Source: a candidate division TM6 bacterium GW2011_GWF2_38_10 (GTDB lineage: Bacteria; Babelota; Babeliae; Babelales; RVW-14). Taken from it: a stretch of DNA of 64,000 nucleotides. Shown here one piece after another: positions 11,142 to 43,430 of the stretch (positions within the stretch are counted from its first letter, which is position 1; each line of letters starts with the position of its first letter). The notes under the pieces are model-generated. The model did not search any database and was not told where the DNA came from. It saw nothing but the letters and a program-made list of their open reading frames with translations. The position numbers and the translations under genes are program-made. The stretch spans positions 848 to 64,847 of the forward strand of contig LBTY01000001.1 in the NCBI GenBank assembly GCA_000992305.1, written 5' to 3'.

Positions 11142-11170
11142 TATAATTTTTTTGCACAGGGAGTAAGGGC

Positions 11171-15147: not shown

Positions 15148-16446
15148 TTAATATATTGGCCAATGAGCTTCGGAGCTATTATTTGGAACGATATTACCTT
15201 TTGTGTTAATAGATGGGCCTTGTCCTTTTTTGCCTGGTCCAGTCCCTTCTAGATGTGCATGGCCATGAGGTAAGTCTGATTTGGGTGGATGTCCGTGAGG
15301 GTTTAGCCTTTGATAATTGGATCCATTTGGATAAGTAGTATGCGTATCAATACCATTTTTTCCAGCGGGTATTGTTTTTCCTCCAATCGGCTCTACCATT
15401 ATATTTCCTTTATTATCAACTATAAATCGACCAATCTCTTTCCCTGTGTTTTTATCAATAATTGGCTTTTCCTTATCTCTATCTTTTTTTCCAAATGGCG
15501 GGGGCGGAGGGGGATTTTTGTTGCCTTTAGGATCTTTATTTTTTTCTGAGAGTTCTTGATTTTTAGAATTATCATCAGAATTTTTATCTATAGACATTTC
15601 AAGAAATAATTGTTCTTTATGCCCTTTGTCAAATAATGTATAGAGCGCATAAGATCCCACCGCCGCGGCGCCGATAGCCCAGCCGGCGGGGCCTGCAAGT
15701 AAACTTAAGCCCCCGGCAGCAATACTTGCTCCCGCAAAAGATAATGATGCTGGGGTGGAGCCAAATGCCAAGGAAATTCCTGCTGCAAGTGCTGGTAAGC
15801 CATTGTGCATTAATATCAGTGGAATATTTTTGTCGTCTTTGCAAGCTATGCCTTGTGAAAATACCGGAATTAAGTAATTATGGGGTTCTTGCAATTCAAT
15901 GGAATACAGGTCAATGCGAGTAAATATAGTTTTTCTTTTAACACGTTTTATGCTTTTCCAAAAATATTTTTTTACTCTTCTTTCTACCTTGTACAGCTCT
16001 TTTTTATGTGTTTGAGTAATGGGAATAGTGAGTAGATTGGAATCAAGAAGCATGTGGCTAGAGGTAAGATATTGTGCTTCAATAACTTCTATGCCAAAAG
16101 TTAGACTCTCCTGATCTTTATCTTCTTGTGTCGCTACTAAAAATTTTTGTTGAGGAGAAGCGCTGATGCATCGATTATCTTCAATGTAAATTTCATAAAG
16201 TGCATCAGCATAATTTTTTTGAGTTTTTATTATTGGCGTATTGATAAAAAGATTTTCAGGTTTTTTAGTATTAAAATTATAACTGATTACCAAATCGCCA
16301 ACTTTAAGATCTTTTATGGAGATCAATCCATTTGGCGTTAAAACTTGTTGTGTTTCAATATGCCCTGCAAAGGAGACGTTTATAATGCTTATGTTGCATA
16401 AAATGATACTTAAGAATAACAGCAATTGCTTTTTGATAGTGAACAT
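15148..16446 (-). CDS. Secreted Hint-domain polymorphic-toxin-like protein. Architecture: signal peptide, degenerate Hint domain, Gly/Ala-rich hydrophobic segment, charged/poly-Pro linker, His-rich C-terminal module
   Basis: Signal peptide MFTIKKQLLLFLSIILCNISIINVSFA. Hint-like blocks VLTPNGLISIKDLKVGDLV and PHNYLIP...PLILMHN, ending in the intein-type HN. Then GLPALAAGISLAFG...GPAGWAIGAAAVG, then KNPPPPPPFGKK. C-terminal module: GIDTHTTYPNGSNYQRLNPHGHPPKSDLPHGHAHLEGTGPGKKGQGPS...SEAHWPIY. Confidence 0.6.
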   Translation of the reverse strand: MFTIKKQLLLFLSIILCNISIINVSFAGHIETQQVLTPNGLISIKDLKVGDLVISYNFNTKKPENLFINTPIIKTQKNYADALYEIYIEDNRCISASPQQKFLVATQEDKDQESLTFGIEVIEAQYLTSSHMLLDSNLLTIPITQTHKKELYKVERRVKKYFWKSIKRVKRKTIFTRIDLYSIELQEPHNYLIPVFSQGIACKDDKNIPLILMHNGLPALAAGISLAFGSTPASLSFAGASIAAGGLSLLAGPAGWAIGAAAVGSYALYTLFDKGHKEQLFLEMSIDKNSDDNSKNQELSEKNKDPKGNKNPPPPPPFGKKDRDKEKPIIDKNTGKEIGRFIVDNKGNIMVEPIGGKTIPAGKNGIDTHTTYPNGSNYQRLNPHGHPPKSDLPHGHAHLEGTGPGKKGQGPSINTKGNIVPNNSSEAHWPIY

Positions 16447-22212: not shown

Positions 22213-22338
22213 GAATAACCTTTCTTGTTTGAATAGTGTTATTTGATCTTGTGCATATGGTAGCATCTTTTTTAAACTTTGTTACACTGTTTTTTATACT
22301 GTTTTTTTGGGTTTCTATTAAAAAGAGGATTGGGTGCG

Positions 22339-23985
22339 ATGGATATGTTTAAAAAAATTTGTACTCTTGTGTTTTTGGGAATGATAGGTATTGGAGGTTA
22401 TGTTTTTTATGGGTTGTATGCACAACGGCATGCATTGCAGCAGTATCAGCAGGTTGTTGATATGAAAAAACATGCTGAGCATAAAGATTCTAATCAGGTT
22501 GTTTCAGCAAATAATGGAAATGGGGTTTTAATTTCAGGTAAGAGTGTTGCAACATCAACGTGGTTAGAGGTTCAAAAAAAAGTTAAAGATACTGTTGTCC
22601 AGGTCTTTGCTCAAATTTGTGAATTTAATTGGTTAGAGCCTTATAAAACGCCTGAACAGGGCGAGGGGCGAGGTAGTGGTTTTTTTATTAATGCTGACGG
22701 TGATTTGATTACCAATTATCATGTGGTGGCGCAGGCTAGTAGCGTGCAAATTCAGATTCCATCATTTGGGCACGAGCAATTTGATGTTGAAATTGTGGGG
22801 GTAAGCCCAGAGCGAGATATTGCATTATTGAGGCTTACCGATGAGTCGCGAGAAAAAATTGTGCGTAAATTAGGAAGTGTGCCATTTTTAGAGCTTGGTG
22901 ATTCTGATGAAATTTTACGTTCGCAAGAGGTGTTAGCGCTGGGTTATCCATTGGGGCAAACACGTTTAAAGAGTACGCTTGGTATTGTGAGTGGTCGTGA
23001 GCGCCTGGGGATTTTTGGATATATTCAGATTACAGCTCCTTTAAATCCTGGCAACTCTGGAGGTCCTGCTTTAAATAGCCATGGTGAAGTTATTGGTATT
23101 AATGCACGTGGCATTCTGGAAGCCCAAAATGTTGGGTATATTATTCCAATTGACGAAGTTAAAAATGCATTGCAGGACCTATATAAAGTTACGTTGTTGC
23201 GGCGTCCAACGCTTGGGTGTTTATTTACTATTGCTTCTCCAGAATTAGTTTCATATTTGGAAAACCCTGGCGAAGGTGGATGGTATATTGCAAAAGTATT
23301 TGATAACACATTGCTTAAAAGTGTTGGGATTCAAGAAAATGATATGCTTTATGAAATTAATGGGTATAGGGTTGATATTTACGGAGATTTAAACGTTCCA
23401 TGGAGTGAAGATAAAGTTAATCTGCTTGAGGTACTCAATCGCCTTAAGGTTGGCGAAGATGTAACATTGCTTGTGTATCGCAAGGGGCAACCAAAGGTGT
23501 TTACGTTTAAATTGGAGCATACCTATTTACCTAAAGTAAGAATTATTTACAGTGAATTTGAGCCAGAAGCAAAGGATTATGAAGTTATTGGCGGCATGGT
23601 GATTATGCAGCTTGCGCTTAATCACGTTGCGCCGCTGATGCAGCGTTCACCCGAGCGAGCTTCTGATTTATCTCGTTATGCCAAAATTGAAAAACAGCAA
23701 GAGCCTGCTTTAGTTCTTACGCATATTTTGCCAAATTCTCAAGCATACAAAGCACAAATTTTACAGCCGGGTGAGCTTATTGAATGTGTTAATGATATAC
23801 CTGTAAAAACATTGGATGAGTTTCGTAATGCGGTGAAAAAAAGTAAAACTACTCGTTTTTTAACCATAAAAACAGAAAGTAAGTTTTATTGTGTATTGTC
23901 AGTTGATAAAATTGTAAAAGATGAAGACATGCTTGCACGTCGCTTCTTTTTTAGGCCATCAAAATTGATTGAAGAAATTGCATGA
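22339..23985 (+). CDS. HtrA/DegP-family (S1C) serine protease with an N-terminal membrane anchor, paralogue 1
   Basis: Catalytic triad context: TNYHVV, DIALLRL, GNSGGPAL. PDZ-like C-terminal region. Start MDMFKK is preceded by aagagga. Confidence 0.8.
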   Translation: MDMFKKICTLVFLGMIGIGGYVFYGLYAQRHALQQYQQVVDMKKHAEHKDSNQVVSANNGNGVLISGKSVATSTWLEVQKKVKDTVVQVFAQICEFNWLEPYKTPEQGEGRGSGFFINADGDLITNYHVVAQASSVQIQIPSFGHEQFDVEIVGVSPERDIALLRLTDESREKIVRKLGSVPFLELGDSDEILRSQEVLALGYPLGQTRLKSTLGIVSGRERLGIFGYIQITAPLNPGNSGGPALNSHGEVIGINARGILEAQNVGYIIPIDEVKNALQDLYKVTLLRRPTLGCLFTIASPELVSYLENPGEGGWYIAKVFDNTLLKSVGIQENDMLYEINGYRVDIYGDLNVPWSEDKVNLLEVLNRLKVGEDVTLLVYRKGQPKVFTFKLEHTYLPKVRIIYSEFEPEAKDYEVIGGMVIMQLALNHVAPLMQRSPERASDLSRYAKIEKQQEPALVLTHILPNSQAYKAQILQPGELIECVNDIPVKTLDEFRNAVKKSKTTRFLTIKTESKFYCVLSVDKIVKDEDMLARRFFFRPSKLIEEIA

Positions 23986-24746
23986 AAATTAAACGTCGAT
24001 TAGATCAGGTTTTAGCAGAATTATATCCAGACCTTTCTCGTACACTTTTGCAAAGTTTTATTATGCAGGGCAAGGTTACGGTCAATGGAAAGGTGCAAAC
24101 AAAAGCGGGTACTCCCATAACGCCTGAGGATGAGGTTATTTTAACGCATCAAGAACCTAAATATGTTAGTCGCGGCGGCTTCAAGCTTGAAGCCGCTTTG
24201 GATCATTTTCAGGTTAATCCTGAAGGACTTGTTGCTATGGATGCTGGTATCTCAACAGGTGGTTTTACTCATTGCTTGTTACAGCGTGGGATTAAAAAAG
24301 TGTATGGGATAGATGTTGGTTTTGGGCAGGTTCATGAAAAGGTGCGTCAAGATTCGCGCGTTGTTGTGCTCGAAAAAGTTAATCTTCGTCACCTTGATTA
24401 TCTTCCCGAATTAGTTGATCTTGTTACGCTTGATTTGTCATTTATTTCATTACTCAAGGTTATGGATGCAATTAAAAAAATTACTCAATCGCATGCAACT
24501 ATTTTGGCTCTTATAAAACCTCAATTTGAAGCAGAGCGAGAAGATATTCGTCGTGGAGGTCTTGTAAAAGATGATGCTGTGCATCAGCGGGTTATAAAAA
24601 AAGTTATTGATGGCATGGCAGAACATGGTTTTGTATGCAAAGGGGTTATCGATTCACCGATTTTAGGAGCCGCTTCAGGTAATAAAGAATTTTTAGGGTG
24701 TTTTGTTCGGCGTGCCAATACCGCTGAAGTTTCTGTTTATGATTAA
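23982..24746 (+). CDS. tlyA: TlyA-family rRNA 2-prime-O-methyltransferase / hemolysin A
   Basis: S4-like N-terminus (RLDQVLAE...SRTLLQSFIMQGKVTVNG). SRGGFKLEAAL, DAGISTGGFTHCLLQRG, GIDVGFGQ. ATGA overlap with the upstream gene. Confidence 0.88.
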   Translation: MKIKRRLDQVLAELYPDLSRTLLQSFIMQGKVTVNGKVQTKAGTPITPEDEVILTHQEPKYVSRGGFKLEAALDHFQVNPEGLVAMDAGISTGGFTHCLLQRGIKKVYGIDVGFGQVHEKVRQDSRVVVLEKVNLRHLDYLPELVDLVTLDLSFISLLKVMDAIKKITQSHATILALIKPQFEAEREDIRRGGLVKDDAVHQRVIKKVIDGMAEHGFVCKGVIDSPILGAASGNKEFLGCFVRRANTAEVSVYD

Positions 24747-24855
24747 TTATACGATTAATTAGTTGTATATTATTGACTAATAAAAATATTTTATGCAACA
24801 CTAAGGTGTAGTATAATGGTTTTTATATGAAGGTTTTGGGGGAATGGAGGTTATA

Positions 24856-26505
24856 ATGGTTATGCGATTGTTATTGTTGTTGTTATGTGTAAGCTGCGGC
24901 TTTGTGTATGCTGATAATCCGAATGATCCTGTTCGATCTGCATCATTAAACATTCAGGTGGAGCGTTCGGCTGCTCAAGCTCCAAATTATACTTATCCTT
25001 CGTTGATTGATTGGACTGTTACTTGTTTGCGTTCATATGATGAGCAACATGAGCCATCATATTTTAGATCTGAAACAGTTTTTCCCTATCTTGAGTTTGT
25101 TCGTGTTTTTCGTGATTATAAAAAGAAAATGGAGCGAAAAGGGATTTTAAACAAAGAAATCTGGACTGTAGTTGATCGCAAAACGGCAGCAGCTTCACAG
25201 GATTTTATGCATCCCTATGCTACTGTTTTAGATATGGATGATGGCAATAAAGTTTGTTTTATGGGTGATTTGCACGGAAGTTTACATTCATTATTAAGAA
25301 ACTTGTGGAGACTTGTATCACTTGGTTATTTAAATGATCAGTTTAAAATAATAAAAAAAGATTTTTATATGGTTTTTACAGGCGATTATGTTGATCGTGG
25401 TCGCTATGGTATTGAGGTTTTGTATACACTGTTACGTTTAAAATGTGCTAATTGGGGACGCGTTCATCTTATTCGTGGTAATCATGAAATGATTGAAATT
25501 AACAAAAGAGATGGATTGTATGAGGAATTGACGCAAAAGTATGGAGAAAATAAGGCAGAACAATGTATGGGGTTATTGTCTATAGTGTATGATACTATGC
25601 CCTTGGCTGTTTATATTGTTGTTCATAAACAAATTATTAAGGCGGTGCATGGTGGTTTTGCACCATATGACTACTACTTTGATGTTAATCGTTTTATAGA
25701 AACGAGTGTAAAAATTAGAAATGATAAAGCTGAATCCTTAGTTCAAAAGCGTTATTTTTATATACCTCTTGTAGGTGAGGAAATTTCTGCCCCTGGATAT
25801 CAGTGGTGTGATTTTGAGCCGCTTTTTGAACAAGCCCTTACGGATGCTGCAATTTTTCCAACATCTGGGCGTGTTTGGCATATTGGTGGGGCATCGGTTC
25901 CTGAATTGCTTAGAAAAGCAGGATTGAGCCTTATGATTAGGGGACACCAGCATGCTTGTTTTGGCTTAAAAGTTTTAGGCGCGGCAGATACTTCATTGGT
26001 GAATATTGACCAAGCTTTTGTTGATCCAAATAGTGGGCAAATACATTGGGTTGCTGCATTGTTTTATGTTGGTTCAGAGGCGGCATTTGATCAGCATAAT
26101 AAACATAATGGATTCCAGGTATCTACAATGATTCCTGTTTTAACTTTTTCATCAGCGGTAGAGGGTGTTGGATTAAATTATGATTGTTTTGGTATTTTGA
26201 CGCTCGATGGGATGTTCGAAACATGGAGACTTAAAGTCTATGAATTTCCTGTTTCATTTATTTCAAAATTAAGAATAATTAATTCGTTGCCGCAACCGTT
26301 TACACTCATAAAACCAGGCAATATGGCTGACAGATTACAGCGTTTTAGATCTACCTCTGGTATGGAAGATTCAGTCTTTATAAAGTTTTTACCAAAAGAA
26401 CGAGCGATGGCGGTTGATGAGTCAACGATGCGAGAATGGTTGCAAGAGATCGTTAATGTGTCTGCCGGTAATGGTCAATCAGCATCTCAAAACATAGCTG
26501 AGTAA
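24856..26505 (+). CDS. Exported PPP-family (eukaryote-type) Ser/Thr phosphatase-like protein, tandem copy 1
   Basis: Signal peptide MVMRLLLLLLCVSCGFVYA. Motifs GDLHGSLHS, GDYVDRGRYGIEVLYTLLRLK, RGNHE, VHGGFAP, RGHQH, FSSAVEGVG. The start at 24856 follows ATGGAGG. Confidence 0.8.
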   Translation: MVMRLLLLLLCVSCGFVYADNPNDPVRSASLNIQVERSAAQAPNYTYPSLIDWTVTCLRSYDEQHEPSYFRSETVFPYLEFVRVFRDYKKKMERKGILNKEIWTVVDRKTAAASQDFMHPYATVLDMDDGNKVCFMGDLHGSLHSLLRNLWRLVSLGYLNDQFKIIKKDFYMVFTGDYVDRGRYGIEVLYTLLRLKCANWGRVHLIRGNHEMIEINKRDGLYEELTQKYGENKAEQCMGLLSIVYDTMPLAVYIVVHKQIIKAVHGGFAPYDYYFDVNRFIETSVKIRNDKAESLVQKRYFYIPLVGEEISAPGYQWCDFEPLFEQALTDAAIFPTSGRVWHIGGASVPELLRKAGLSLMIRGHQHACFGLKVLGAADTSLVNIDQAFVDPNSGQIHWVAALFYVGSEAAFDQHNKHNGFQVSTMIPVLTFSSAVEGVGLNYDCFGILTLDGMFETWRLKVYEFPVSFISKLRIINSLPQPFTLIKPGNMADRLQRFRSTSGMEDSVFIKFLPKERAMAVDESTMREWLQEIVNVSAGNGQSASQNIAE

Positions 26506-26534
26506 AAATTATTCATTAAAAATATTGCATTGTG

Positions 26535-26570
26535 AAAAGTCCCTTGATGTGATATCAGGGGACTTTTTTT
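26535..26570 (+). terminator. Rho-independent terminator after phosphatase copy 1
   Basis: aaaagtcccttgat, loop, atcaggggac, followed by ttttttt. Confidence 0.6.
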
Positions 26571-26681
26571 GAATGAACAAAAGATATGTCGATAAATTAT
26601 TGACCAATAGAAATATTATATGTCATGATAATAGGTAGTAAGATTTTTTTTAATGTGTTTCTTAGGAGAATGGAGGTTTTT

Positions 26682-28319
26682 ATGCTTTCTCGATTGTTAT
26701 TGTTGGCTTTATGTTTTAGCAATTACGCGGTATTTGCAACTTTACCACAAGATTCAGCTCAATCTGTATCGTCAAAAAGTCAGGATGAATCTATATCATA
26801 TGCTTCATTAACTGGTTGGAGTGCGGCTTGTTTGTCTTCTTATGATGAGCAGAAGGCGCCGAAAATGTATAGTTATCCAAGTCCAGTTTTATCATTTGAA
26901 GAATTTGTGCGTGTTTTTAATGAATATAAAGAAAATATGCAAGAAAAAGGAATTTTGAATGAAGCAACATGGAATGCTATTGATCAAAAAACTGCTATTT
27001 TATCTGATGACGTTAAGCATCCTCATGTAACCGTTTTACGAATAGGTAATGAGAGTAAGGTTTGTTTTATAGGTGATTTACATGGAAGTTTGCATTCATT
27101 ATTAAGAAGTTTGTGGCGGCTTGTAGCTCTTGGTTATTTGGATGATCAATTTAAGATAATAAAAAAAGATTTTTATATGGTTTTTACAGGCGATTATGTT
27201 GATCGAGGGCGTTTTAGTATTGAAGTTTTATACACGTTGTTGCGTTTAAAATGTGTTAATTGGGAACAAGTCTATCTTATTCGTGGAAACCATGAAAAAA
27301 TATTTCTGGATATGGTTGAACCACGAGTAATAGACTTCGAGATTGAAAAGAAGTATGGGTATGAACAATATGAAGAAATTAATCCGTTATTATATCAATT
27401 ATATGATACAATGCCTTTAGCTGTTTATATTGTTGTTAATGACGAAGTAATAAAAGCTGTTCATGGTGGGTTTGCTCCATATAGTTATTATGATGTTAAT
27501 CATTTAAAAAATAATAAAGAAGTGCCTGAATCTTTACCTTCAATTAGGTATATTTATATTCCACTTGGGTCACAAGGGAATTTTAGTGATCAATATCCGG
27601 AGAATAGTTATTCTGGATATCAGTGGTGTGATTTTGAAATATATAAAAAACCTAAATCTTCAAAAAATTTAGAATTTTTTAAAGATTCTTTATCACAAGA
27701 TTTTATTAAAAAAGCAGGATCCCGTATTTGGCGTGTTGGCCGCTCTGCTAGTCAGTTGTTACTTGAAAAAGCTGGAATCCGCCTTATGATGAGGGGCCAT
27801 CAACATCATTCTTTTGGTTTAAAGGTTTTGGGAATTTCAGGGGATTCTGATACGTTTAAACCTGCAACGGGTGATTGGTGTCGTGGAAATCCTAGTTTGT
27901 ATAATTGGGTGGCTGCGCTTTCTCATATTGGTGCGATTGATGAACATAATGAATCTGATGGATTTTTAGTTTCTAAAATGATTCCTATTTTTACTTTTTC
28001 TTCAGCAATAGAAGGGGTTGGTGTAAAAAGTGATTGTTTTGGTATTCTAAGTATCAAAGGGCCGTTTGAAGAATGGAGACTTAAAGTCTATGAGTTCCCA
28101 GTTTGGTTTGCTTCAACTAATCCATCAATAAGCAAATTAACCAATCCTTTTACGTTGATTAAACCAATAAATAAAACTATTCAAGATAAATCGTACAAAT
28201 CTACCTCTGGCATGGAGGATTCTATTTTTGTAGAATTTTCAGAAGAGCAAGGTGATCAAGCAACAATTAAAGGATGGTTGCAAGAGATTGTTAATACGTC
28301 TGCTGGCAATAATCAATAA
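26682..28319 (+). CDS. Exported PPP-family phosphatase-like protein, tandem copy 2
   Basis: Leader MLSRLLLLALCFSNYAVFA. Same motif set: GDLHGSLHS, GDYVDRGRFSIEVLYTLLRLK, RGNHE, VHGGFAP, RGHQH, FSSAIEGVG. Has a 50-nt run identical to copy 1 (27156-27205 equals 25348-25397). An alternative start lies at 26670. Confidence 0.8.
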   Translation: MLSRLLLLALCFSNYAVFATLPQDSAQSVSSKSQDESISYASLTGWSAACLSSYDEQKAPKMYSYPSPVLSFEEFVRVFNEYKENMQEKGILNEATWNAIDQKTAILSDDVKHPHVTVLRIGNESKVCFIGDLHGSLHSLLRSLWRLVALGYLDDQFKIIKKDFYMVFTGDYVDRGRFSIEVLYTLLRLKCVNWEQVYLIRGNHEKIFLDMVEPRVIDFEIEKKYGYEQYEEINPLLYQLYDTMPLAVYIVVNDEVIKAVHGGFAPYSYYDVNHLKNNKEVPESLPSIRYIYIPLGSQGNFSDQYPENSYSGYQWCDFEIYKKPKSSKNLEFFKDSLSQDFIKKAGSRIWRVGRSASQLLLEKAGIRLMMRGHQHHSFGLKVLGISGDSDTFKPATGDWCRGNPSLYNWVAALSHIGAIDEHNESDGFLVSKMIPIFTFSSAIEGVGVKSDCFGILSIKGPFEEWRLKVYEFPVWFASTNPSISKLTNPFTLIKPINKTIQDKSYKSTSGMEDSIFVEFSEEQGDQATIKGWLQEIVNTSAGNNQ

Positions 28320-28364
28320 GCATCAGAAGGTTTTGATGTGCAGAATTAATTAAAAGGGGCGGTT

Positions 28365-30044
28365 ATGAAAAAAGTTGTAATGTTATTGTTTGGTCTTTTG
28401 ATTGTGTGTCAGGAAGTGCATGCATTAATGGAACAACGATTTTTTCATAGCCGCTTACATGCCTTACCTTCAGCATTATACTATAAAAATTTAATGCAAA
28501 AGACATCATTGCCAGAAGAAAAAAAAGTTCGGTTACCGCGTTTATCTTCACAAGACGTGCAAGATTATTATCAGTCCTATGAAGGATCTATTCCTTATAC
28601 ATTTACAACATTTTCATTATGGAGCGCGCGTTGTTTTTCGTCATATGATGAACAGTTTAGTAATTATGATTATCTTTCTGATTCTATTTTACCAGCCCAG
28701 GAATTATTGCGTGTTTTGTATGATTTTAGAGGCAAGGCAGCAAGCGCGGGGGTTCGAGTTAATGTTTCTTCTGATGAATCTGATGAGAGTAGTGAAAATT
28801 ACATAAAAAATGCACATGCTGCACAAGTTCGGCTTGAGGGTGATAGTACCATATGTTTTATTGGGGATTTGCATGGAAGTATTCATTCATTGTTGCGGAA
28901 TTTATGGCGACTTGTTGCATTGGGCTATCTGGGTGATGATTTTGTTATAAAAGATAAACATTTTCATATGGTTTTTACGGGTGATTATGTTGATCGGGGT
29001 CGTTATGGTGCGGAGGTTTTGTATACACTTTTGCGGTTGAAATGTGCAAACTGGGATTCTGTGTTTTTAGTTCGTGGAAACCATGAATTGCCAATTGTTA
29101 ATAATCGCATTGTTTCAAAGGGTGGAGGTTTTTCAAAAGAATTACAGTTAAAATATGCTGATAATGCTGATTATGTAAAATCTATGATTTACAGAGCATA
29201 TCAGGATTTGCCTTTGGCTCTTTATATAACCAAAGAAAGCAAAACAATACTTGCGTGTCATGGTGGATTTGCGCCATTTCCTTATTACACAGAATTATTA
29301 AAAAAATTTCAGACACTTTCTGCTGAAAAAAAAGTTTATTATTTGCCGATTACGTTAGATAAAAATGAATTAATTTCTTGCGGGTTTCAATGGTGCGACA
29401 TTTATCAATGCGATTCTGTTGGGGTACCTCAAGAGATTTTAGCGGATTCTTTACGGGTTTGGGCAATGTCAGTTCCATGCGTTTTAAAAAAAATGCATGA
29501 GGCGGGAGTGTGTGCTTTTTTTCGAGGTCATCAGCATCGAGAGTATGGTATGAAAATGTTTTTGCATCAAGCAACCTATGATCATTTGCAGATGGACTCA
29601 TCTAAACGATTACCGAGTATTTTTCATTGGCGTGTTGCCCTTAAGTATGCTCCTTTAGGCAAGGGAATTGATGAACATAATGGGAGTGGATTTTTATTAA
29701 AAAATCATATACCTGTTTTTACCTTTTCTTCTGCCACTGAAGGAGTAGGGATCCCCTTTGATTGTTTTGGTTTGTTATTTGCTCATGGTGATTATGATTT
29801 TTGGCGTTTAAAAGTTTTTGAATATCCTTGTGCTTTGGGGTTTTCTTCATATAAAAAAAATAGTCATGTTTTTACACAAATTGTGCCAAACGATAATGAA
29901 GATACCCGAGTGCTGAATGATGTGTTACAATCAACATCGGGCATCAAAGATATAGTGTCTATTCAATTTTCTTTACATGCTCAGGATGAAGATGATCTAA
30001 AAAAAACACTTATAGATATTGCATCTTCAGTTTCAGCTAACTGA
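28365..30044 (+). CDS. Exported PPP-family phosphatase-like protein, tandem copy 3
   Basis: Leader MKKVVMLLFGLLIVCQEVHA. Motifs GDLHGSIHS, GDYVDRGRYGAEVLYTLLRLK, RGNHE, CHGGFAP, RGHQH, FSSATEGVG. RBS aagggg. Confidence 0.8.
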   Translation: MKKVVMLLFGLLIVCQEVHALMEQRFFHSRLHALPSALYYKNLMQKTSLPEEKKVRLPRLSSQDVQDYYQSYEGSIPYTFTTFSLWSARCFSSYDEQFSNYDYLSDSILPAQELLRVLYDFRGKAASAGVRVNVSSDESDESSENYIKNAHAAQVRLEGDSTICFIGDLHGSIHSLLRNLWRLVALGYLGDDFVIKDKHFHMVFTGDYVDRGRYGAEVLYTLLRLKCANWDSVFLVRGNHELPIVNNRIVSKGGGFSKELQLKYADNADYVKSMIYRAYQDLPLALYITKESKTILACHGGFAPFPYYTELLKKFQTLSAEKKVYYLPITLDKNELISCGFQWCDIYQCDSVGVPQEILADSLRVWAMSVPCVLKKMHEAGVCAFFRGHQHREYGMKMFLHQATYDHLQMDSSKRLPSIFHWRVALKYAPLGKGIDEHNGSGFLLKNHIPVFTFSSATEGVGIPFDCFGLLFAHGDYDFWRLKVFEYPCALGFSSYKKNSHVFTQIVPNDNEDTRVLNDVLQSTSGIKDIVSIQFSLHAQDEDDLKKTLIDIASSVSAN

Positions 30045-31112
30045 TTAAGAAAGTGTGTCAAGAAAACGTTTTGCTTGCAGCGCCGCGCGGCAACCATCGC
30101 CTGCAGCTGTTATAGCTTGTATAAAATGATTGTCTGCAATATCTCCCGCTGCAAAAATACCAGGGCGCGATGTTTCTTGATGATTTTTAAGAGTGATAAA
30201 TCCTTGTGGCGTGAGTTCAAGTTGATCTTTAAAAAGGGTTGTATTTGGACGAGATCCTATGGCCAAAAAGATTCCATCAACTGCGATTGTTTCTTGTTTA
30301 TTTGTTTTTGTGTTTGTTGTGTGAATAGCAGTAACGCCATAAGCATCACCTTCTATTTGGTGAGGGGCAGTATTAAAGCGTACTGAAACATTTTCTTTTT
30401 TTAGCAATAGATCCAGCGCCTTTTTGTCTTTTGCTGCAAAAACATCTTTGCGGATAAGCATGGTGACCGAAGAGGCAATGTTCGATAAATAATGAGCTTG
30501 CTCAACCGCAGAGTCTCCGCCGCCAACAACAACAACTTTTTTATTTTTGTAAAATGCACCATCGCATACAGCACAATTGCTTACGCCGCGCCCCCAAAAA
30601 CCATCTTCTCCTTGTTCACCTGGTATGTGCAAAAAGTTTGGCTCGGTGCCCATTGCAATAATGCACGTGTGAGTTGCGATTGTTTTAAGTTTTCCATCAG
30701 GTAGTTCAATGGTTATTTGATAGGGTAGTGAGGTAAATGTAACGTTTTGTACTACGCCATCTATTATAGTCGCACCGCTTTGGAGCGCGTGTTTTTTTAT
30801 TTTTTCTACAATCGAAGCTCCAGATACGTGATATTCTCCTGGCCAATTATTAACTTCATGTGATTGTCCGAGAGCCCCTCCGGGTTTTGGTCCTTCAACC
30901 ACAAGGGCTGGGATGTTACTTTGCTGCAGGTAAATCGAAGCTGTTAAGCCTGCAATGCCGCCGCCGAGTATAACAACAGGGACTATGTCTTGAGGCTTGA
31001 CCGATTGAGGCTTTGAATTTTCCTCTATGGTTGTTTTGGTGCAGCTTGTAAACAACGTAAGGCAAACAACACTACAGAGTGTTATTATATTTTTTTTTAT
31101 TGTCATATTCAT
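30045..31112 (-). CDS. Thioredoxin-reductase-like flavoprotein with an N-terminal lipoprotein-type leader
   Basis: GGGIAGLTA (FAD), CAVCDG (redox-active dithiol), GGGDSAVEQA (NAD(P)H), FAAGD. About 44 extra N-terminal residues: MNMTIKKNIITLCSVVCLTLFTSC-TKT. Lies 21 nt downstream of phosphatase copy 4. Confidence 0.75.
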   Translation of the reverse strand: MNMTIKKNIITLCSVVCLTLFTSCTKTTIEENSKPQSVKPQDIVPVVILGGGIAGLTASIYLQQSNIPALVVEGPKPGGALGQSHEVNNWPGEYHVSGASIVEKIKKHALQSGATIIDGVVQNVTFTSLPYQITIELPDGKLKTIATHTCIIAMGTEPNFLHIPGEQGEDGFWGRGVSNCAVCDGAFYKNKKVVVVGGGDSAVEQAHYLSNIASSVTMLIRKDVFAAKDKKALDLLLKKENVSVRFNTAPHQIEGDAYGVTAIHTTNTKTNKQETIAVDGIFLAIGSRPNTTLFKDQLELTPQGFITLKNHQETSRPGIFAAGDIADNHFIQAITAAGDGCRAALQAKRFLDTLS

Positions 31113-31133
31113 AATTTCTCCTTTTAAAATGAA

Positions 31134-32747
31134 CTATATAAACAATTTTCTTTGCTGCGTAATAGCGGCGCTTTGGGGGAGTGTTATAACATTAGGTTTT
31201 ATAGGTGTTTTGGTAATAGGTTTTTTTTGTAGACCGGTGGGGGGCTTGGGAAGTCTAAAAATTTGTAGAGAAGTTCTTTGTTTTTTATAGTCCGAGAGCA
31301 TTCCGGGGTTGGGTAGAATAGTAATTTCTTGTGATTTTGTTTGCCATACATCATCATATTTATTTTTGCTAAAAGGATTGACTTGCCATGTGTCATAAAC
31401 CTTATTGAACGTTAATGTAATAAAATTATCATAATCCAAAATGTTTGCTAGGCTTGATATGGAAACAACGGGAAAGCTACTATTTTGAGGGTCAACTTGT
31501 AATAAGATTGGGTGTTTAATAGGGGTCCAGTTTGCAAGTTCTAAGTTTGATAAACAGCGGCTAGGTTCTGGGTGTTTGTTGTAAGCAAGTTGTGAGACGT
31601 ATTTAAGATGATCATGCCCACGGATAATGCCGCATACAGAATATACTTTTTCTTTACGATGGGCTTCTAGGTAATTGAGTGTGGCTATGCCGTGAAATTG
31701 TTGATCTTGGGCGGCGCCATTTGGAAGAGGGCATCTATTTCCTGGTAACTTTATTGCGGGAGCTTCAGGGTCGGAAAAAAAACTATTCCAAATAAGCCCA
31801 TTGTGCTTTGGAGCTTGAGGGTAAATGGTCATAGCGTTATTATTCATATTGCGAATGGTAAGATTTAACAGTTTATTAAATTGTAGGGAGAAATATTCAT
31901 TATTTTCAGCAAGAAAATCGGGAAGTCCTGCGTGAAAATATTGGGTAAATGTGTAAGAATTTTGTGCATTGAGTGTTCCTACAAAGCATGTTTGAGGGAG
32001 TAAGTAAAAAAGTTCAAAAAAGGCTCTGTTTAAAATATCATAAAAACAACTATCGCAAAATTTTTGGTATTTTATTGTTAATTCATTTAACATGCCATAC
32101 ATTTCTATGAGTTTTTTTGTTTCGTGATTTCCTTGAAGAATGGTAACTTTTTTGGGGTTTTTTTTGTAGAGCAATAAGGCAAGGAACCATGTTTCAATGC
32201 TATAGTGCCCACGATCGCCAAGGTCTCCGGTGAATATAAGATATGCATCTTTATCAAGTATGCCATCGCGGGTGATAAGTTTTCTTTTATAAAGAGCATT
32301 GATAATTCTTGCAAGAGAGTGCGCATTTCCATGAAGATCCCCAATAGAAATTATTGTCGCTTCTGGTTGAACGGTAAAGGCTTTAGCGCAGATTCCTTGT
32401 TCTTCGTCAAAAAGGCAATCAATATCTTGAGGGGAGAAATTATACAATTGTTTATACTCTTCTTTCATTGAGGAAAAAACATGAGCGATAAGATTTGAAA
32501 GCATTTCCATGGATATTATTGGTTCGTAGGATTCTCCAAAATCAGATGCTATATCCTCTGTGTATTCATATTCTGGGAGCTGTAAAATTGACTCACAAAC
32601 TTCAAAAAAGGATGAGTCTTGGTGGAGAGGTTCTAGCGTTTTTTTTAGTGAAGGAAGGTTTGACATAGGGTACATAGTTGAAGATCCTAAACACAGTATT
32701 GCTATGCAGGTAAGGATATTTTTTTTTAGTGATGAGAGCAAAAACAT
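31134..32747 (-). CDS. Exported PPP-family phosphatase-like protein, divergent subfamily (copy 4)
   Basis: Leader MFLLSSLKKNILTCIAILCLGSS. Motifs GDLHGNAHSLARI, GDLGDRGHYSIETW, QGNHE, RGHDH. RBS aaagga. Confidence 0.75.
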   Translation of the reverse strand: MFLLSSLKKNILTCIAILCLGSSTMYPMSNLPSLKKTLEPLHQDSSFFEVCESILQLPEYEYTEDIASDFGESYEPIISMEMLSNLIAHVFSSMKEEYKQLYNFSPQDIDCLFDEEQGICAKAFTVQPEATIISIGDLHGNAHSLARIINALYKRKLITRDGILDKDAYLIFTGDLGDRGHYSIETWFLALLLYKKNPKKVTILQGNHETKKLIEMYGMLNELTIKYQKFCDSCFYDILNRAFFELFYLLPQTCFVGTLNAQNSYTFTQYFHAGLPDFLAENNEYFSLQFNKLLNLTIRNMNNNAMTIYPQAPKHNGLIWNSFFSDPEAPAIKLPGNRCPLPNGAAQDQQFHGIATLNYLEAHRKEKVYSVCGIIRGHDHLKYVSQLAYNKHPEPSRCLSNLELANWTPIKHPILLQVDPQNSSFPVVSISSLANILDYDNFITLTFNKVYDTWQVNPFSKNKYDDVWQTKSQEITILPNPGMLSDYKKQRTSLQIFRLPKPPTGLQKKPITKTPIKPNVITLPQSAAITQQRKLFI

Positions 32748-32961
32748 TATGGTCCTTTAGGTAAAGTTTTTATTTTGGAGTACATATAAAAATGCAAAGA
32801 TAGGGGTTTGAATGTATGCTAAAAATATAATTATGCAATAAAAAAATAGAATTCGAAACTAATAACTATTTTTTAGTGATTTTAGTGAGATTTTTCTTGC
32901 AATATTTAAGGTATTTGGCAAACTATCTGGTAATTACTGGTTAAAACGCCTCAAGTATTTT

Positions 32962-33039
32962 GGGGCTGTAGCTCAGTTTGGTTAGAGCGTCCGCCTGTCA
33001 CGCGGAAGGTCGCGGGTTCGAGCCCCGTCAGCCCCGCCA
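32962..33039 (+). tRNA. tRNA-Asp (anticodon GUC), CCA encoded
   Basis: Hand-folded cloverleaf. Acceptor GGGGCTG/CAGCCCC. Anticodon arm TCCGC-CTGTCAC-GCGGA. T arm GCGGG-TTCGAGC-CCCGT. Close to the E. coli tRNA-Asp pattern. Confidence 0.92.
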
Positions 33040-33183
33040 GTTAATTTCAAAATTTTGCTATTCCATTTTCATTTCCCTTTTTATATTTTCCTTGTCTTGC
33101 GTAAAACTTTTACAATTGTTGCGTGTTGATCCTTTATTATGCTTTACTAAAAAATAAAAATATTGTTTTTGGGGGAGATGATT

Positions 33184-34698
33184 ATGATGATATGTTACGA
33201 TAGTATTATTCGAGTTTTTTACATTTTTGTGGTTTTTGTCTATGGAGCGCTTGCTGCGACCATCGCAGAGCAAGGTGGGTGGCGTAAGGTTCAGGCGCTT
33301 GCCAAGAATACCGTTGTTCAAATTTTTGTGCAGACGGCTTCGTTTGATTGGCTTGAGCCTTATAAGGCACCGAGCCAAAGTAAATCGTATGGAACTGGTT
33401 TTTTTATTGATGCTCAAGGTCATTTACTTACCAATTTTCATGTTATTGATCATGCGGTGAGTGTTAAGATTCAAATTCCAGCACTAGGAAAGGAACAGCT
33501 TGACGTGCATATTGTTGGGGTTTGTCCTGATCGTGACCTTGCGTTGCTTAAGTTGTCGCCGGAGTCTTTTGGGCGTATTACGGAGTATTTGGGCTCAATT
33601 CCTTGGTTAAAGCTTGGGGAGTCGGATAAGGTTGTACGTACGCAGGAAATTTTGGCGCTGGGGTATCCGCTTGGGCAAGAAAAATTAAAAAGCACTCAGG
33701 GGATTGTGAGTGGTCATGAATATGCCTGGGGTGAGGCATATATTCAAATTACGGCTGCGCTTAATCCAGGAAATTCTGGTGGACCATCATTAAATGCTCA
33801 AGGAGAGGTAGTTGGTATTAATACGGCGCGGATACCTGACGCACAAAATATTGGATATATCATTCCTATCGATAATCTAAAAAGCGTTATTCAGGATTTA
33901 CATAAAGTGCGGTTATTGCGCAAGCCTATTTTGGGGTGTGAATTTAATTATGGGAACAAGCCTATGATTGCATTTTTGCAAAATCCATTGCCGGGTGGGT
34001 TGTATATCACGCGTGTATACAAAGATTCGTTGTTAGAGCGGGCGGGTGTTTGTCCAGGGGATATGATGTACAAAATAAATGGGTATTCGGTTGATCGTTA
34101 CGGTGAGCTTGATGTGCCATGGAGCGAGGATAAAGTTCCGCTCGCTGCACTTTTAAATAGATTTGAATTAGGTCAGCGCTTGAATATTGTGGTGTTCCGT
34201 CATGGGCTAGAGCATTCGATAGAATTATTATTTGAGCATACGCAACCGCTTGCAATTCGCAAGATGTATCCAGGGTTTGAGCCTATTTTGTATGAAATAT
34301 TTGGAGGGATGGTTGTGATGGAGCTCGCCTTGAATCATCTTGAGCCTTTGGAAGATATTGAGCCAAAACTCATTCGATATCGAGAGCGAAAAAATCAATA
34401 CAAGGGACGGTTAGTAGTAACGCATTTATTCCCTAATTCTCCTGCGCAACGAGCTCGTGTTGTGTGTGTGGGGGATTTATTGGTTGAGGTAAATGGCAAA
34501 AAGGTGAGAACTATTGATGAGTTTCGTGAGTGTATTAAGATGAGCGGGGAGTATTGTACGTTTGCCATGCATGATAAGAAATTTATGGTGCTTGCAACTC
34601 GTGATGTTGTTGCGTCTGAACCTTTATTGGCTCAGCGTTATTTTTATACACCGTCACCACTTATAGAAGCGTTAGGTGGTATCTTGGATGGAAAATAG
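33184..34698 (+). CDS. HtrA/DegP-family serine protease, paralogue 2
   Basis: TNFHVI, DLALLKL, GNSGGPSL. Collinear with 22339-23985. The ATG at 33184 follows gggggag. The track start at 33163 is a TTG. Confidence 0.8.
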   Translation: MMICYDSIIRVFYIFVVFVYGALAATIAEQGGWRKVQALAKNTVVQIFVQTASFDWLEPYKAPSQSKSYGTGFFIDAQGHLLTNFHVIDHAVSVKIQIPALGKEQLDVHIVGVCPDRDLALLKLSPESFGRITEYLGSIPWLKLGESDKVVRTQEILALGYPLGQEKLKSTQGIVSGHEYAWGEAYIQITAALNPGNSGGPSLNAQGEVVGINTARIPDAQNIGYIIPIDNLKSVIQDLHKVRLLRKPILGCEFNYGNKPMIAFLQNPLPGGLYITRVYKDSLLERAGVCPGDMMYKINGYSVDRYGELDVPWSEDKVPLAALLNRFELGQRLNIVVFRHGLEHSIELLFEHTQPLAIRKMYPGFEPILYEIFGGMVVMELALNHLEPLEDIEPKLIRYRERKNQYKGRLVVTHLFPNSPAQRARVVCVGDLLVEVNGKKVRTIDEFRECIKMSGEYCTFAMHDKKFMVLATRDVVASEPLLAQRYFYTPSPLIEALGGILDGK

Positions 34699-39314: not shown

Positions 39315-41252
39315 TTAATTTTTTTTCCAAAAAATTTTGCATGCTTCAACGTATTCCATAGCTTCGTATAAATTCATGGTGGCAACACCTATAACTTGAT
39401 CAGCTCCGCCGTAGTACATGTAGATTGTATTATTAACACGTACGGCTCCACAAGGGAATACGACATTATTTACTTGTCCTTCCAATTCCCATGGCATTAC
39501 TGGTTCAAAAAGCGGTTCATCGGTGCGTGCTATAATGTGTGTTGGATTTTCAAGATCAAGCAGTAGTGCCCCGACTCGGTAAAAGTGATCATCGGAAGAA
39601 ACGCCATGATAGAGTAATACCCATCCCTTTTCAGTTTTGATTGGTGGTGCCGACATTCCTATTTTTAGACTATCCCAATGTCCAGGGCGTGGACAAATCC
39701 AGCGATATTCTTCAAGCCATGTATTCCCATCAAAGTCAAGTGTTTTGCAAAAAGAAGAGTCGATATCATCACCGCTTCGATGAATAATGAAATAATTGCC
39801 ATGAATTTTTTCAGGGAAAATACACGAATTTTTATTGCTAATTCCAGGAGGCGAAATAAGCACAGGCATTGCCCATTTATCCCATGCTTGGTTAAGAAAA
39901 TCATGCGTGCTGATAAAGGTGAGGGCAACGCGGGGGAGGCTTTGTCCATCAACTGCCGTATAGAGCATGTAAACGCGATCATCAATAAGTGTAATGCGTG
40001 GATCTTCGCATCCAGTATTAGCATTCGGAACTTTTTTTTGTTCAAATGACGCTCGAGGAACATATATTGGCTCTTGAGCGCGATAATCTATATGAATACC
40101 ATCTTTTGTGGTTGCATATCCTAAAACAGAGGTGTTATCTTGTGACATTGCTCGATAAATAATATGTGTTGTTCCTCCAAGGTGAATTGCCGCTGGATTG
40201 AATACTGCGCGAGATTCCCATGCATGATTTTGAATAGGACTTAGGATGGGATTGCTTTCGGCTCGGGTAAATGAAAGTTTTTTGTGCCGTTGTAAAAGTT
40301 TTGTGATAAGTGCTTCTTTGTTGATTGTTGCACGACAGCATGTTGTATCAGCAGCTCCGTAGTAAAGGTGAAGGTTATTATCTTCTTCTAAAATACCTGT
40401 TGGGAATACAACGTTTGGTACAATGCCGATCCGTTCATAATATTCATCAGGTGTTAAAAGAGGGGCTTTCGTATGGGCTATTATGTTTTTGGGATTTTCA
40501 AGATCAAGCAGGACTGCTTCAATGCCAAATAGTGGGTTGCCGGTAAAATAATTTTTTATGTATGAGTAAATCATGAGCCAGCCTTCATCTGTTTTAATCG
40601 GTGTTGCACCGCATTCAACATGATCATGTGGCGAGCGCGCAAGTGGCAGTATATTTTGTTCATAATTTTCATACCATGTCTGCCATAGATTTTGATTCCA
40701 GATGTCGCTGATATGATCAAAGCTTACAAGGCATACTGCCGCTGGTGGCATGTCGGTATGAACGGTAAGAGTAGCCCAATATTTACCATTAATTTTTTCA
40801 GGAAAAAGTGCCATGCCTTTTGCATTGAATGGTGTTACTAAATGTTTTTCTTCTATGGTGTATAAATCTTTGGTAAGTGCAACGCCAACTTTAATTCCTT
40901 GTGCATTAAATGGATAGGTTGATAAGGCGGTATAAAAAATATAATAGGTATCATCTATTTTAGTTACGCGTGGATCTTCGCAGCCAAATTGCTCCCAGGG
41001 TTGCTCTGGGGTAATGATGCATTTGCGATCATGAAAATGAATGCCATCGGTACTTGGTGCAAGGCCAATGGTTGAAAGATGAAGTCTGGTTTGGGCTATA
41101 TTGTGATAATGATCTCGAGATAAGGCTCTGTAGATAAGATATATTTTATCATCTTTTTTTACGGGGCATCCATTAAAAACAGCATGGGCTTCCCATGAGT
41201 GAATTCGTTTAGGTTTTAAAATGGGGTTGCTTTCATGTCTTTGTATGAGCAT
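39315..41252 (-). CDS. Tandem double GH130-family (beta-mannoside phosphorylase/glycosidase-like, DUF377) protein
   Basis: Two modules, each with NPIL.P....WE..AVFN, CEDPR and YYG.AD: HESNPILKPKRIHSWEAHAVFN...GCEDPRVT...LYYGAADT, and again ESNPILSPIQNHAWESRAVFN...GCEDPRIT...MYYGGADQ. No signal peptide. Confidence 0.75.
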   Translation of the reverse strand: MLIQRHESNPILKPKRIHSWEAHAVFNGCPVKKDDKIYLIYRALSRDHYHNIAQTRLHLSTIGLAPSTDGIHFHDRKCIITPEQPWEQFGCEDPRVTKIDDTYYIFYTALSTYPFNAQGIKVGVALTKDLYTIEEKHLVTPFNAKGMALFPEKINGKYWATLTVHTDMPPAAVCLVSFDHISDIWNQNLWQTWYENYEQNILPLARSPHDHVECGATPIKTDEGWLMIYSYIKNYFTGNPLFGIEAVLLDLENPKNIIAHTKAPLLTPDEYYERIGIVPNVVFPTGILEEDNNLHLYYGAADTTCCRATINKEALITKLLQRHKKLSFTRAESNPILSPIQNHAWESRAVFNPAAIHLGGTTHIIYRAMSQDNTSVLGYATTKDGIHIDYRAQEPIYVPRASFEQKKVPNANTGCEDPRITLIDDRVYMLYTAVDGQSLPRVALTFISTHDFLNQAWDKWAMPVLISPPGISNKNSCIFPEKIHGNYFIIHRSGDDIDSSFCKTLDFDGNTWLEEYRWICPRPGHWDSLKIGMSAPPIKTEKGWVLLYHGVSSDDHFYRVGALLLDLENPTHIIARTDEPLFEPVMPWELEGQVNNVVFPCGAVRVNNTIYMYYGGADQVIGVATMNLYEAMEYVEACKIFWKKN

Positions 41253-43227: not shown

Positions 43228-43430
43228 TAAAGTCTCCAAAAAAATGAGTATTCATTTATTGATTAGTATTTTAGCTTATATTCTTTTTTTTGTACTGCCA
43301 ATCTAAAAAATATGTAGTTAGATTAAATCACGAAAATTAATACATCTTTTTAAAAATAGTTGTTTTTTTTTTATAAAAAATATTACAGTTAACCAAGTTG
43401 CAATACTCTATTGTGAAAAAAGGAGATGCT

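Follow-up and report, generated by a model that had tools for sequence, protein, structure and literature searches.

The phosphatase genes and their catalytic core

Dependentiae are widespread and nearly uncultured parasites of protists, whose toolkit for manipulating the host is known chiefly in the form of ankyrin proteins without assigned activity. Here we analyze a 64-kb stretch of the genome of one of them, candidate division TM6 bacterium GW2011_GWF2_38_10 (contig LBTY01000001.1, positions 848 to 64,847; hereafter the window, with coordinates counted from its first nucleotide), which codes for five paralogous proteins that combine a hydrophobic N-terminal leader with a phosphatase domain of the PPP family. 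An earlier note on this DNA, made from the sequence alone, had pointed to five such open reading frames (ORFs). The five ORFs stand at the coordinates given there, all of them intact, and a search with a hidden Markov model (HMM) of the family recovers exactly these five members in the window:

24856-26505, forward strand: copy 1, a PPP phosphatase of 549 aa (Metallophos E 3.7e-20), with GGAGG 5 nt before the ATG; its parts are the leader (aa 1-19, nt 24856-24912), the W53-x3-C57 box (nt 25012-25047), the PPP core (aa ~121-467, nt 25216-26256) and a C-terminal extension (aa 468-549)
26682-28319, forward strand: copy 2, a PPP phosphatase of 545 aa, with a leader at aa 1-19 (nt 26682-26738) and GGAGG 5 nt before the ATG at 26682
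28365-30044, forward strand: copy 3, a PPP phosphatase of 559 aa, with a leader at aa 1-20 (nt 28365-28424)
31134-32747, reverse strand: copy 4, a PPP phosphatase of 537 aa (Metallophos E 2.8e-14; family HMM 311 bits), with a leader at aa 1-23 (nt 32679-32747)
43431-44975, forward strand: copy 5, a PPP phosphatase of 514 aa (Metallophos E 4.7e-9; family HMM 320 bits), with a leader or anchor at aa 1-28 (nt 43431-43514) and AGGAG 6 nt before the ATG at 43431
25348-25397 and 27156-27205, forward strand: a 50-nt stretch of copy 1 that recurs as an exact match in copy 2, encoding the invariant peptide IIKKDFYMVFTGDYVDR (PPP motif 2)

The first three genes follow one another head to tail, the intervals being 176 and 45 nt long. 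On the opposite strand, beyond a thioredoxin-reductase-like gene that is the sole gene between copies 3 and 4, lies copy 4; copy 5 follows after another 10.7 kb. Shine-Dalgarno-like motifs are situated 4-6 nt before the chosen ATGs of the copies, and the 75 nt upstream of copies 1 and 2 are 73% identical; scans for promoters and terminators across 24600-33200 returned sites no more frequently than in shuffled sequences. At the protein level copy 2 is 56% identical to copy 1, copy 3 39%, and copies 4 and 5 21% each. A protein recorded from the same bacterium (P0001), which matches copy 1 at 100%, is annotated only as 'Serine/threonine-protein phosphatase'.

All five proteins are recovered above cut-off by the Pfam Metallophos profile (PF00149; E 4e-20 to 5e-9). 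Copies 1-3 display, as had been read from the sequence earlier, the motif series GDLHGS, GDYVDRGR, RGNHE, HGGFAP, RGHQH and FSSAxEGVG, and copy 4 shows the variants GDLHGN, GDLGDRGH, QGNHE, HAG and RGHDH. The best matches in a sequence search of the PDB were BSU1, PP2A, RdgC, PP5, PP1 and calcineurin (E 5e-15 to 1e-9), and among the PDB sequence matches listed no subfamily is favoured (BSU1 58 bits, PP2A 52, PP5 48, PP1 42), with identity to any eukaryotic PPP amounting to just 15-20%. An AlphaFold2 (AF2) model of copy 1, built on an alignment of 56 sequences, predicts one globule (predicted local distance difference test, pLDDT, 86.4; predicted TM-score, pTM, 0.88), with a helix at residues 2-13 at the N-terminus and then a low-confidence linker at residues 15-39. 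A Foldseek search with this model against the PDB gave 175 matches at E<=1e-3; the best 50 are all eukaryotic PPPs, including PP5, PP1, PP2A, PPZ1, calcineurin and RdgC (E ~1e-15; target-normalised TM-score up to 0.74). The family HMM, for its part, aligns human PP1alpha over motifs 1-5 with 112.9 bits, against 17 bits for the lambda phosphatase, which it matches at the N-terminus only (the PP1alpha reference was identical to 1FJM_A over 330/330 residues, and the lambda phosphatase was checked against 1G5B_A). The NCBIfam models for PrpA, ApaH, PrpE and Pnkp reach 16-24 bits against cut-offs of 176-750, and do so over N-terminal motif stretches only. These scores would fit a place on the eukaryotic-like wing of the PPP tree.

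The active site can be matched to that of PP1 residue by residue. The metal ligands D138, H140, D177, N209, H265 and H364 correspond to PP1 D64, H66, D92, N124, H173 and H248, the general acid pair H210 with D180 to PP1 H125 with D95, the phosphate clamp of R181 and R339 to PP1 R96 and R221, and W317-x-D319 to the eukaryote-type W-x-D of PP1 (W206-S-D208). Each of the five copies retains all six ligands, as well as the catalytic His and the first Arg of the clamp, and D138, H140, D177, N209, H210, H265 and H364 are invariant throughout the alignment of 56 sequences. The counterpart of PP1 D208, D319, is kept in 83 of the 86 family sequences, among them copies 1, 2, 3 and 5. R339 is kept in 81 of the 86; HMMER places it opposite PP1 R221, and its distance ahead of H364 is 25 residues, as compared with 27 in PP1. 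Copy 4 has a Ser at the PP1 D208 position, with SDP three residues on, and copy 5 has a Gln in the loop-Arg (PP1 R221) column with Arg residues close by, which leaves this column ambiguous; because of these shifts, the substrate clamp of copies 4 and 5 may be different.

In motif 6, where PP1 has LVTLFSAPNY, copies 1-3 read TFSSA(V/I/T)EG and the low-GC members of the family have the consensus pVfTf.sapeg; E-G is found in place of the N-Y of PP1, and the Tyr of the SAPNY loop (Tyr272) is absent. The motif (I/L/V)D(S/T)G, a hallmark of bacterial PPPs (PMC535813), was not found in the motif 6 region of the family. According to Kerk et al. (2021, PMC8249667), the features that separate eukaryotic-like from bacterial PPPs are an Asp where bacterial PPPs have their second clamp Arg, an Arg in the loop before motif 5, and a motif 6 of the SAPNY type. 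As these features are present and (I/L/V)D(S/T)G is absent, the alignments support the assignment of the five proteins to the eukaryote-type PPPs, as the earlier note had proposed, rather than to the lambda/PrpA/ApaH type.

Around this core the family bears elements of its own. An extra N-terminal region of ~100 residues is helical and carries W53-x3-C57 and W103. The box recorded earlier as W..C..SYDEQ is real, and is now seen as a family-wide W-x3-C element, Verrucomicrobiota included; a disulfide partner for its Cys was sought in the alignment, where only C57 is conserved (80%). Compared with PP1, ~20 residues are inserted between motifs 4 and 5 and ~45 residues, with an invariant Trp, between motif 5 (RGHQH) and motif 6, and the distance from the motif 5 His to motif 6 is 67 residues versus 20 in PP1. 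What had been described as a conserved C-terminal module, DCFG(I/L)L/WRLKV(Y/F)E(F/Y)P, is for the most part no such module: DCFGIL and WRLKVYEFP correspond in the alignment to the two final beta strands of the PPP core (NAGAMMSV and LMCSFQILKP in PP1), and the true C-terminal extension comprises residues ~468-549 only, in copies 1-3.

Leaders, relatives and history of the family

The leaders of copies 1-3 show a basic n-region, an h-region of 10-13 residues and V-x-A before the predicted cut: MVMR-L6CVSCGF-VYA in copy 1 (cut before D), MLSR-LLLLALCF..-VFA in copy 2 (before T) and MKK-VVMLLFGLLIVC-QEVHA in copy 3 (before L). Judged by inspection for n-region charge, an h-region of 8-15 residues and small residues at -3/-1 or a lipobox, copies 1-4 fit signal peptides, copy 4 being plausible; in copy 5 the hydrophobic stretch runs to 19 residues and shows no obvious cleavage site. 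All five proteins begin with a hydrophobic leader, and the n-h-c layout with V-x-A marks those of copies 1-3 as putative signal peptides. Among homologues with a complete N-terminus, a hydrophobic leader directly precedes the W box in 38/38 Verrucomicrobial and 17/20 low-GC proteins, as compared to 18/174 control windows. The leader sequences themselves are unconserved between homologues, and several end in lipoboxes.

The bacterial PPP-type phosphatases such as PrpA/PrpB function in stress signalling. A comparable role might be envisaged here, with an uncleaved signal anchor tethering the proteins to the membrane as regulators of the cell's own Ser/Thr/Tyr phosphorylation or of envelope signalling; the hydrophobic stretch of copy 5, which is long enough for a membrane anchor, would suit such a role, as would the histidine kinase beside one array of family genes (locus L081, see below). 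We regard this as improbable. Copies 1-3 and most homologues have the short h-regions and the small -3/-1 residues or lipoboxes typical of cleaved leaders, no partner kinase is conserved beside the family genes in the window or at the Luteolibacter and L007 loci, and an anchor inserted with its N-terminus inside would leave the domain outside the cytoplasm anyway.

In an exhaustive HMMER scan of 1.84 billion cluster representatives, the number of clusters (50% identity) detected rose from 158 at E<=1e-30 to 2042 at E<=1e-10 and 8545 at E<=1e-3. A second scan, seeded by motifs and covering a single genome for each GTDB species, yielded 141 relatives, from which 80 loci were kept for the distribution analysis. 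These comprise a low-GC set (0.32-0.44), which carries the labels TM6, Dependentiae or Babeliales and also includes metagenome-assembled genomes (MAGs) recorded as 'uncultured Pseudomonadota', and a high-GC set (0.51-0.71) of ~50 sequences, most of them labelled Verrucomicrobiota (Verrucomicrobiales, Limisphaerales), the cultured Luteolibacter pohnpeiensis included. At least two of the 'Pseudomonadota' MAGs, those with loci L001 and L003, share synteny with the window (HtrA, TlyA, serine hydroxymethyltransferase (SHMT) and S1 at 72-75% protein identity); going by this match their labels are almost certainly wrong and they come from relatives of the Dependentiae, and the same probably holds for L002, L004, L006, L008, L011 and L037.

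The Verrucomicrobial proteins, of ~500 aa, keep the leader, the (F/Y)xxWxxxC box (e.g. PTFAAWQAACAKL), RAHQH and the insertion Trp, and each of the Verrucomicrobial loci that were fetched has one family gene. A conserved partner gene was sought around the Luteolibacter orthologue and L007 and none was found, the neighbours being unrelated housekeeping genes. Because the leader architecture is present in both phyla, the family reads as an old bacterial lineage common to Dependentiae and Verrucomicrobiota, and its leader, a putative export signal, would be ancestral rather than an invention of the parasite. The earlier view that the family is uncharacterised agrees with the literature searched on phosphatases of Dependentiae (Babela, Chromulinavorax) and on eukaryotic-like PPPs of Verrucomicrobia, in which neither a description nor an experimental characterisation of it was found; the papers on secretion in cultured Dependentiae (PMC4378268, PMC6561590) do not mention phosphatases. 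Previous PPP surveys appear not to cover the clade, and databases annotate it generically.

Multi-copy arrangements recur in Dependentiae-type genomes: L007, L015 and L016 have two genes each, and L081 (GC 0.36) has four in 12 kb, adjoining a HAMP/HisKA histidine kinase. In the L001 interval syntenic with the window (TlyA, phosphatase, TrxR-like) one family gene is visible, ~40% identical to copies 1 and 3, a count taken on a scaffold with a 20-N gap. Family phosphatases are also fused to other domains. In P0164 (L081 6001-9804; 1267 aa), the phosphatase precedes ~20 ankyrin repeats and a coiled-coil region; at L015 7425-13526, an ORF of 2034 aa has an ankyrin segment on a family phosphatase; and at L033 7500-9797 a family phosphatase is joined with a hemerythrin domain. 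Other family proteins of 800-1500 aa have extensions without domain assignment.

Within the window, the nucleotide identity of copies 1 and 2 amounts to 66%, and 62% of the codons for their identical amino acids are the same codon. The 50-nt run noted earlier is exact and is the longest that they share. It is only mildly unusual (P ~0.013 under shuffling of codon pairs inside amino-acid classes) and is compatible with micro-conversion or with chance plus AT-biased codon usage; beyond it no extended low-divergence tract was found between the two copies. The run had been taken to imply recent duplication or gene conversion. As the main feature of the array this was rejected on account of the 66% DNA identity, the 62% codon identity and the lack of a long tract, so that of the former proposal a short conversion tract stands at most. 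A neighbour-joining tree rooted on PP1, in which only shallow nodes are resolved, unites copies 1 and 2 (100%), copies 1-3 with the L001 protein (73%), copies 4 and 5 (83%) and the Verrucomicrobial clade (70%), with the low-GC lineages branching deeply and in no resolved order. To judge by these divergences the duplications are old, and copies 4 and 5 form another subfamily, itself ancient. The tree's apparent placement of the Verrucomicrobial clade inside the low-GC lineages, like its deep branching, lacks support and may be a product of long-branch attraction.

The best structural matches in BFVD, with E-values (4e-18 to 1e-14) better than those of the solved eukaryotic PPPs, are long (520-650 aa) PPPs of giant viruses of protists, namely Indivirus, Hyperionvirus, Bodo saltans virus and CroV (A0A1V0SDR3, A0A3G5ACJ1, A0A2H4UVV2, E3T5U6). 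Further, a 188-kb IMG/VR contig (IMGVR_UViG_3300042197_002395) carries at L082 4377-6386 a leaderless, family-like PPP that scores 166 bits with the family HMM and 32 bits with PP1. Together with the eukaryotic PPPs being the nearest solved structures, these matches could be taken to mean that a host PPP gene was recently acquired from a eukaryote or giant virus and kept as a host mimic. We consider such an acquisition highly improbable in view of the low identity to any eukaryotic PPP with no favoured subfamily, the family's own conserved insertions and bacterial leader, and its deep diversification in two bacterial phyla, as seen in the 158 clusters found at the strictest threshold. Moreover, the other giant-virus bins in IMG/VR have ordinary PP1 (mostly >300 bits to PP1), and the phage matches are N-terminal only; with L082 as the one family-like gene there, a viral origin was dropped. 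The similarities may reflect a gene pool common to protist parasites.

Genomic neighbourhood of the cluster

The array is embedded in ordinary chromosome, with genes for SHMT, ribosomal protein S1, HtrA-like proteases, a TlyA/FtsJ methyltransferase and an ABC-F protein. Further genes of the window code for NrdD, GH130 enzymes, FtsZ/FtsA and AspRS (aspartyl-tRNA synthetase), and the other ORFs scanned are mostly housekeeping or without a Pfam match. The description of this region as a segment full of ankyrin proteins proves to be overstated: there are two ankyrin genes only, adjacent to each other, at 1362-4499 (reverse strand, 1045 aa) and 4524-8540 (reverse strand, 1338 aa). Two other genes of the window are of interest:

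30045-31112, reverse strand: thioredoxin-reductase-like flavoprotein (Pyr_redox_2 E 2.4e-47) with a lipoprotein-like leader, between copies 3 and 4
51652-52851, reverse strand: platform protein of a type II secretion system (T2SS) or type IV pilus, GspF/PilC type (Pfam T2SSF E 5.9e-46), away from the array

The platform gene is a possible component of the export route. The flavoprotein, whose leader reads MNMTIKKNIITLCSVVCLTLFTSC..., is encoded next to a family phosphatase not only in the window but also in L001 (5323-6864, reverse strand; 57% identity) and L011 (3695-4759; 44%), and an exported NAD(P)H flavoenzyme would be odd. Redox control might be hinted at by this repeated adjacency and by the fact that the phosphatases conserve a single Cys (C57); for the present the flavoprotein ranks as a neighbour only.

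Two paralogous HtrA/DegP-like proteases (22279-23985 and 33163-34698, both on the forward strand) flank the phosphatase cluster, each with a trypsin-like domain, PDZ domains and an N-terminal hydrophobic segment; the first has an orthologue in L001 with 75% identity. Between copies 4 and 5 lies a row of sugar genes on the reverse strand, coding for a double-domain GH130 enzyme (39315-41252), a single-domain GH130 enzyme (41280-42263) and a GT2 glycosyltransferase (42286-43239). GH130 is the mannoside-phosphorylase family, and a set of genes for sugar phosphorolysis is surprising in a metabolically reduced parasite. A leader-bearing ORF of 432 aa (15148-16446, reverse strand) resembles the intein/Hint splicing domain weakly, with a score below threshold (E 2.7e-4). 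No Pfam match was obtained for several ORFs of 470-560 aa whose N-termini are hydrophobic; they lie at 9660-14261 (three consecutive), 53742-55394 and 60528-62018, all on the forward strand. GC skew is above 0 in all 2-kb bins over the 64 kb (0.05-0.27), whatever the strand of the genes, which is consistent with the whole window lying on one replichore.

Proposed function and relation to known systems

We propose that the five genes code for catalytically competent, binuclear-metal phosphomonoesterases that would be made as pre-proteins with Sec leaders. The mature enzyme would be a compact globule of ~500 aa, in which a PP1/PP5-like core is surrounded by the decorations of the family, and catalysis would proceed as in PP1, with the six ligands binding two metals, H210/D180 serving as general acid and R181/R339 clamping the phosphate. 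In this genome of an obligately host-dependent member of the Dependentiae the old lineage would have expanded to two old subfamilies with five genes. Read from motifs, predicted fold and leaders, it is very probable that all five act as metal-dependent phosphomonoesterases and pass out of the cytoplasm via Sec. Published work on cultured Dependentiae treats proteins with leaders, ankyrin proteins among them, as secreted into the host, and names a T2SS as the sole secretion system detected (PMC4378268, PMC6561590). The phosphatases could likewise exit the cell through Sec and then the T2SS or outer-membrane vesicles, and the released enzymes would dephosphorylate host phosphoproteins, with the variable decorations, or the ankyrin repeats in relatives, choosing the targets. 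Regarding the substrate, W-x-D without the Arg that follows LL(V)W in WipA and the Shewanella cold-active protein tyrosine phosphatase favours phosphoserine and phosphothreonine (pSer/pThr), and the loss of the SAPNY Tyr could give wider access to phosphotyrosine (pTyr).

Use of the enzymes as host-directed effectors, released to act on host phosphoproteins, is a tentative suggestion that falls a little short of an even prospect. In its favour are the expansion and tandem arrays that recur in Dependentiae-type loci, the ankyrin fusions P0164 and the L015 ORF, the secretion of leader-bearing proteins in cultured Dependentiae, and the precedent that Legionella WipA and WipB set for effectors with a PPP fold. 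Several observations weigh against it. The leader architecture is conserved in the ~50 Verrucomicrobiota sequences, including that of the cultured L. pohnpeiensis, so that export predates a host-directed role and does not imply one. Leaders are also very common in Dependentiae, signal peptides being present on 44% of the coding sequences and 78% of the ankyrin proteins of Chromulinavorax (PMC6561590). In the window, a crude hydrophobicity test of low specificity is passed by 19 of the 37 ORFs, the possible membrane anchor of copy 5 has been mentioned above, and the genes are surrounded by housekeeping functions, not by an island for secretion or effectors. P0164, as its start is called, lacks a leader. 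Finally, motif 6 lacks the SAPNY Tyr, and on sequence grounds the substrate could be pSer/pThr, pTyr or non-protein. The idea of a host-targeting effector family, as put forward in the earlier note, is thus weakened by the Verrucomicrobial architecture and in part restored by the ankyrin fusions and recurrent tandem arrays of Dependentiae-type genomes. Taken as a whole, the explanation that these are exported eukaryote-type PPPs acting on host phosphoproteins is the best available, and we see it as evenly poised between right and wrong.

The same Verrucomicrobial evidence lends itself to a different view, the main rival, namely that the family is an envelope or periplasmic housekeeping enzyme, serving in phosphate or nutrient scavenging or in the processing of imported phospho-compounds, of which the Dependentiae copies are paralogues. 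The leader, W-x3-C element and PPP core are conserved in free-living Verrucomicrobiota, with one gene per fetched locus and lipoboxes in several; both the Luteolibacter orthologue and the window genes have housekeeping neighbourhoods, and Dependentiae rely on imported host metabolites (PMC4776705, PMC6561590). The two-Arg clamp and W-x-D, by contrast, are associated with phosphoprotein substrates (PMC8249667), and it would be unusual for a reduced genome to devote at least five divergent paralogues, tandem arrays and ankyrin fusions to scavenging. On balance a housekeeping role is possible, if doubtful. A more far-reaching form of the effector proposal, which we put forward as speculation and think rather unlikely, would have a large clade of Sec-exported PPPs recruited, multiplied and ankyrin-fused in Dependentiae, where they would act as secreted 'self-targeting holoenzymes' that rewrite Ser/Thr (or Tyr) phosphorylation of the host.

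A probably exported phosphatase family with readable chemistry, expanded and at times fused to ankyrin repeats, offers a testable handle on how Dependentiae act on host cells; the clade's size and phyletic pattern and its expansion in Dependentiae are likewise useful and open to testing, and the cultured L. pohnpeiensis is a tractable organism for its ancestral function. The hundreds of clusters of eukaryote-type PPPs in Dependentiae and Verrucomicrobiota enlarge the picture of the rare bacterial eukaryotic-like PPPs and add a probable extracytoplasmic branch to the PPP family. Kerk et al. argue that the transition to the eukaryotic type took place in Bacteria; a bolder corollary of the far-reaching proposal, should it hold, is that the clade could help to place the first origin of the eukaryotic-type PPP architecture.

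With the eukaryotic PPP catalytic subunits (PP1, PP2A, PP5, calcineurin, BSU1 and RdgC/PPEF) the family has in common the six motifs, the metal ligands, the His-Asp pair, the clamp, the fold and the T-(F/L)-x-S-A-(P) opening of motif 6. It differs from them in being bacterial and in its Sec-type leader, N-terminal W-x3-C region, insertions and, in copies 1-3, C-terminal extension; the features of canonical PP1/PP2A/PP5/PP2B, a SAPNYC loop with Tyr272 and a compact ~300-aa core, are not those of the family. The lambda phosphatase, PrpA/PrpB, ApaH, PrpE, Shelphs and Rhilphs share with it the N-terminal GDxHG, GDxxDRG and GNHE, and alignments to such bacterial PPPs cover only the first ~90 residues. 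Unlike them, the family has neither (I/L/V)D(S/T)G nor an Arg at the PP1 D208 position; the distinction from Shelphs and Rhilphs is drawn from sequence features. The 59 bacterial EukaryoticPPP-like sequences, described as chiefly from Deltaproteobacteria and Firmicutes, that were assembled by Kerk et al. (Sci Rep 11:13681) share with the family the Asp for the second clamp Arg, the loop Arg and the eukaryote-like C-terminal remodelling. Export leaders are not discussed for that set. A text search of the supplementary tables of that study found two Dependentiae entries, both from other MAGs, and neither Verrucomicrobia nor the MAG analyzed here.

The best functional analogy is provided by WipA, WipB and WipC of Legionella pneumophila, paralogous Dot/Icm effectors with a PPP fold and grafted targeting modules (PMC5454105, PMC5572681), that is, phosphatases put into the host by an intracellular parasite of amoebae. 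They do not belong to the same family: the NCBIfam model NF043030 (T4SS_Wip), which has a cut-off of 300 bits, matches just copies 4 and 5, over short stretches and with scores of 18.8 and 13.2 bits. Delivery of the Wip proteins is by a type IV secretion system, as against the Sec-type leader here, and WipA has an Arg after LLW that is tied to pTyr specificity (PMC5454105), as against the W-x-D that the family has in common with Ser/Thr PPPs. If the proposal is true, the Dependentiae phosphatases would be a counterpart of the Wip effectors delivered through Sec and the T2SS, and would mimic complexes of PP1 with ankyrin subunits. Both the enzyme class and the idea of a phosphatase effector are already familiar, and what is new is a leader-bearing, decorated branch of eukaryote-type PPPs.

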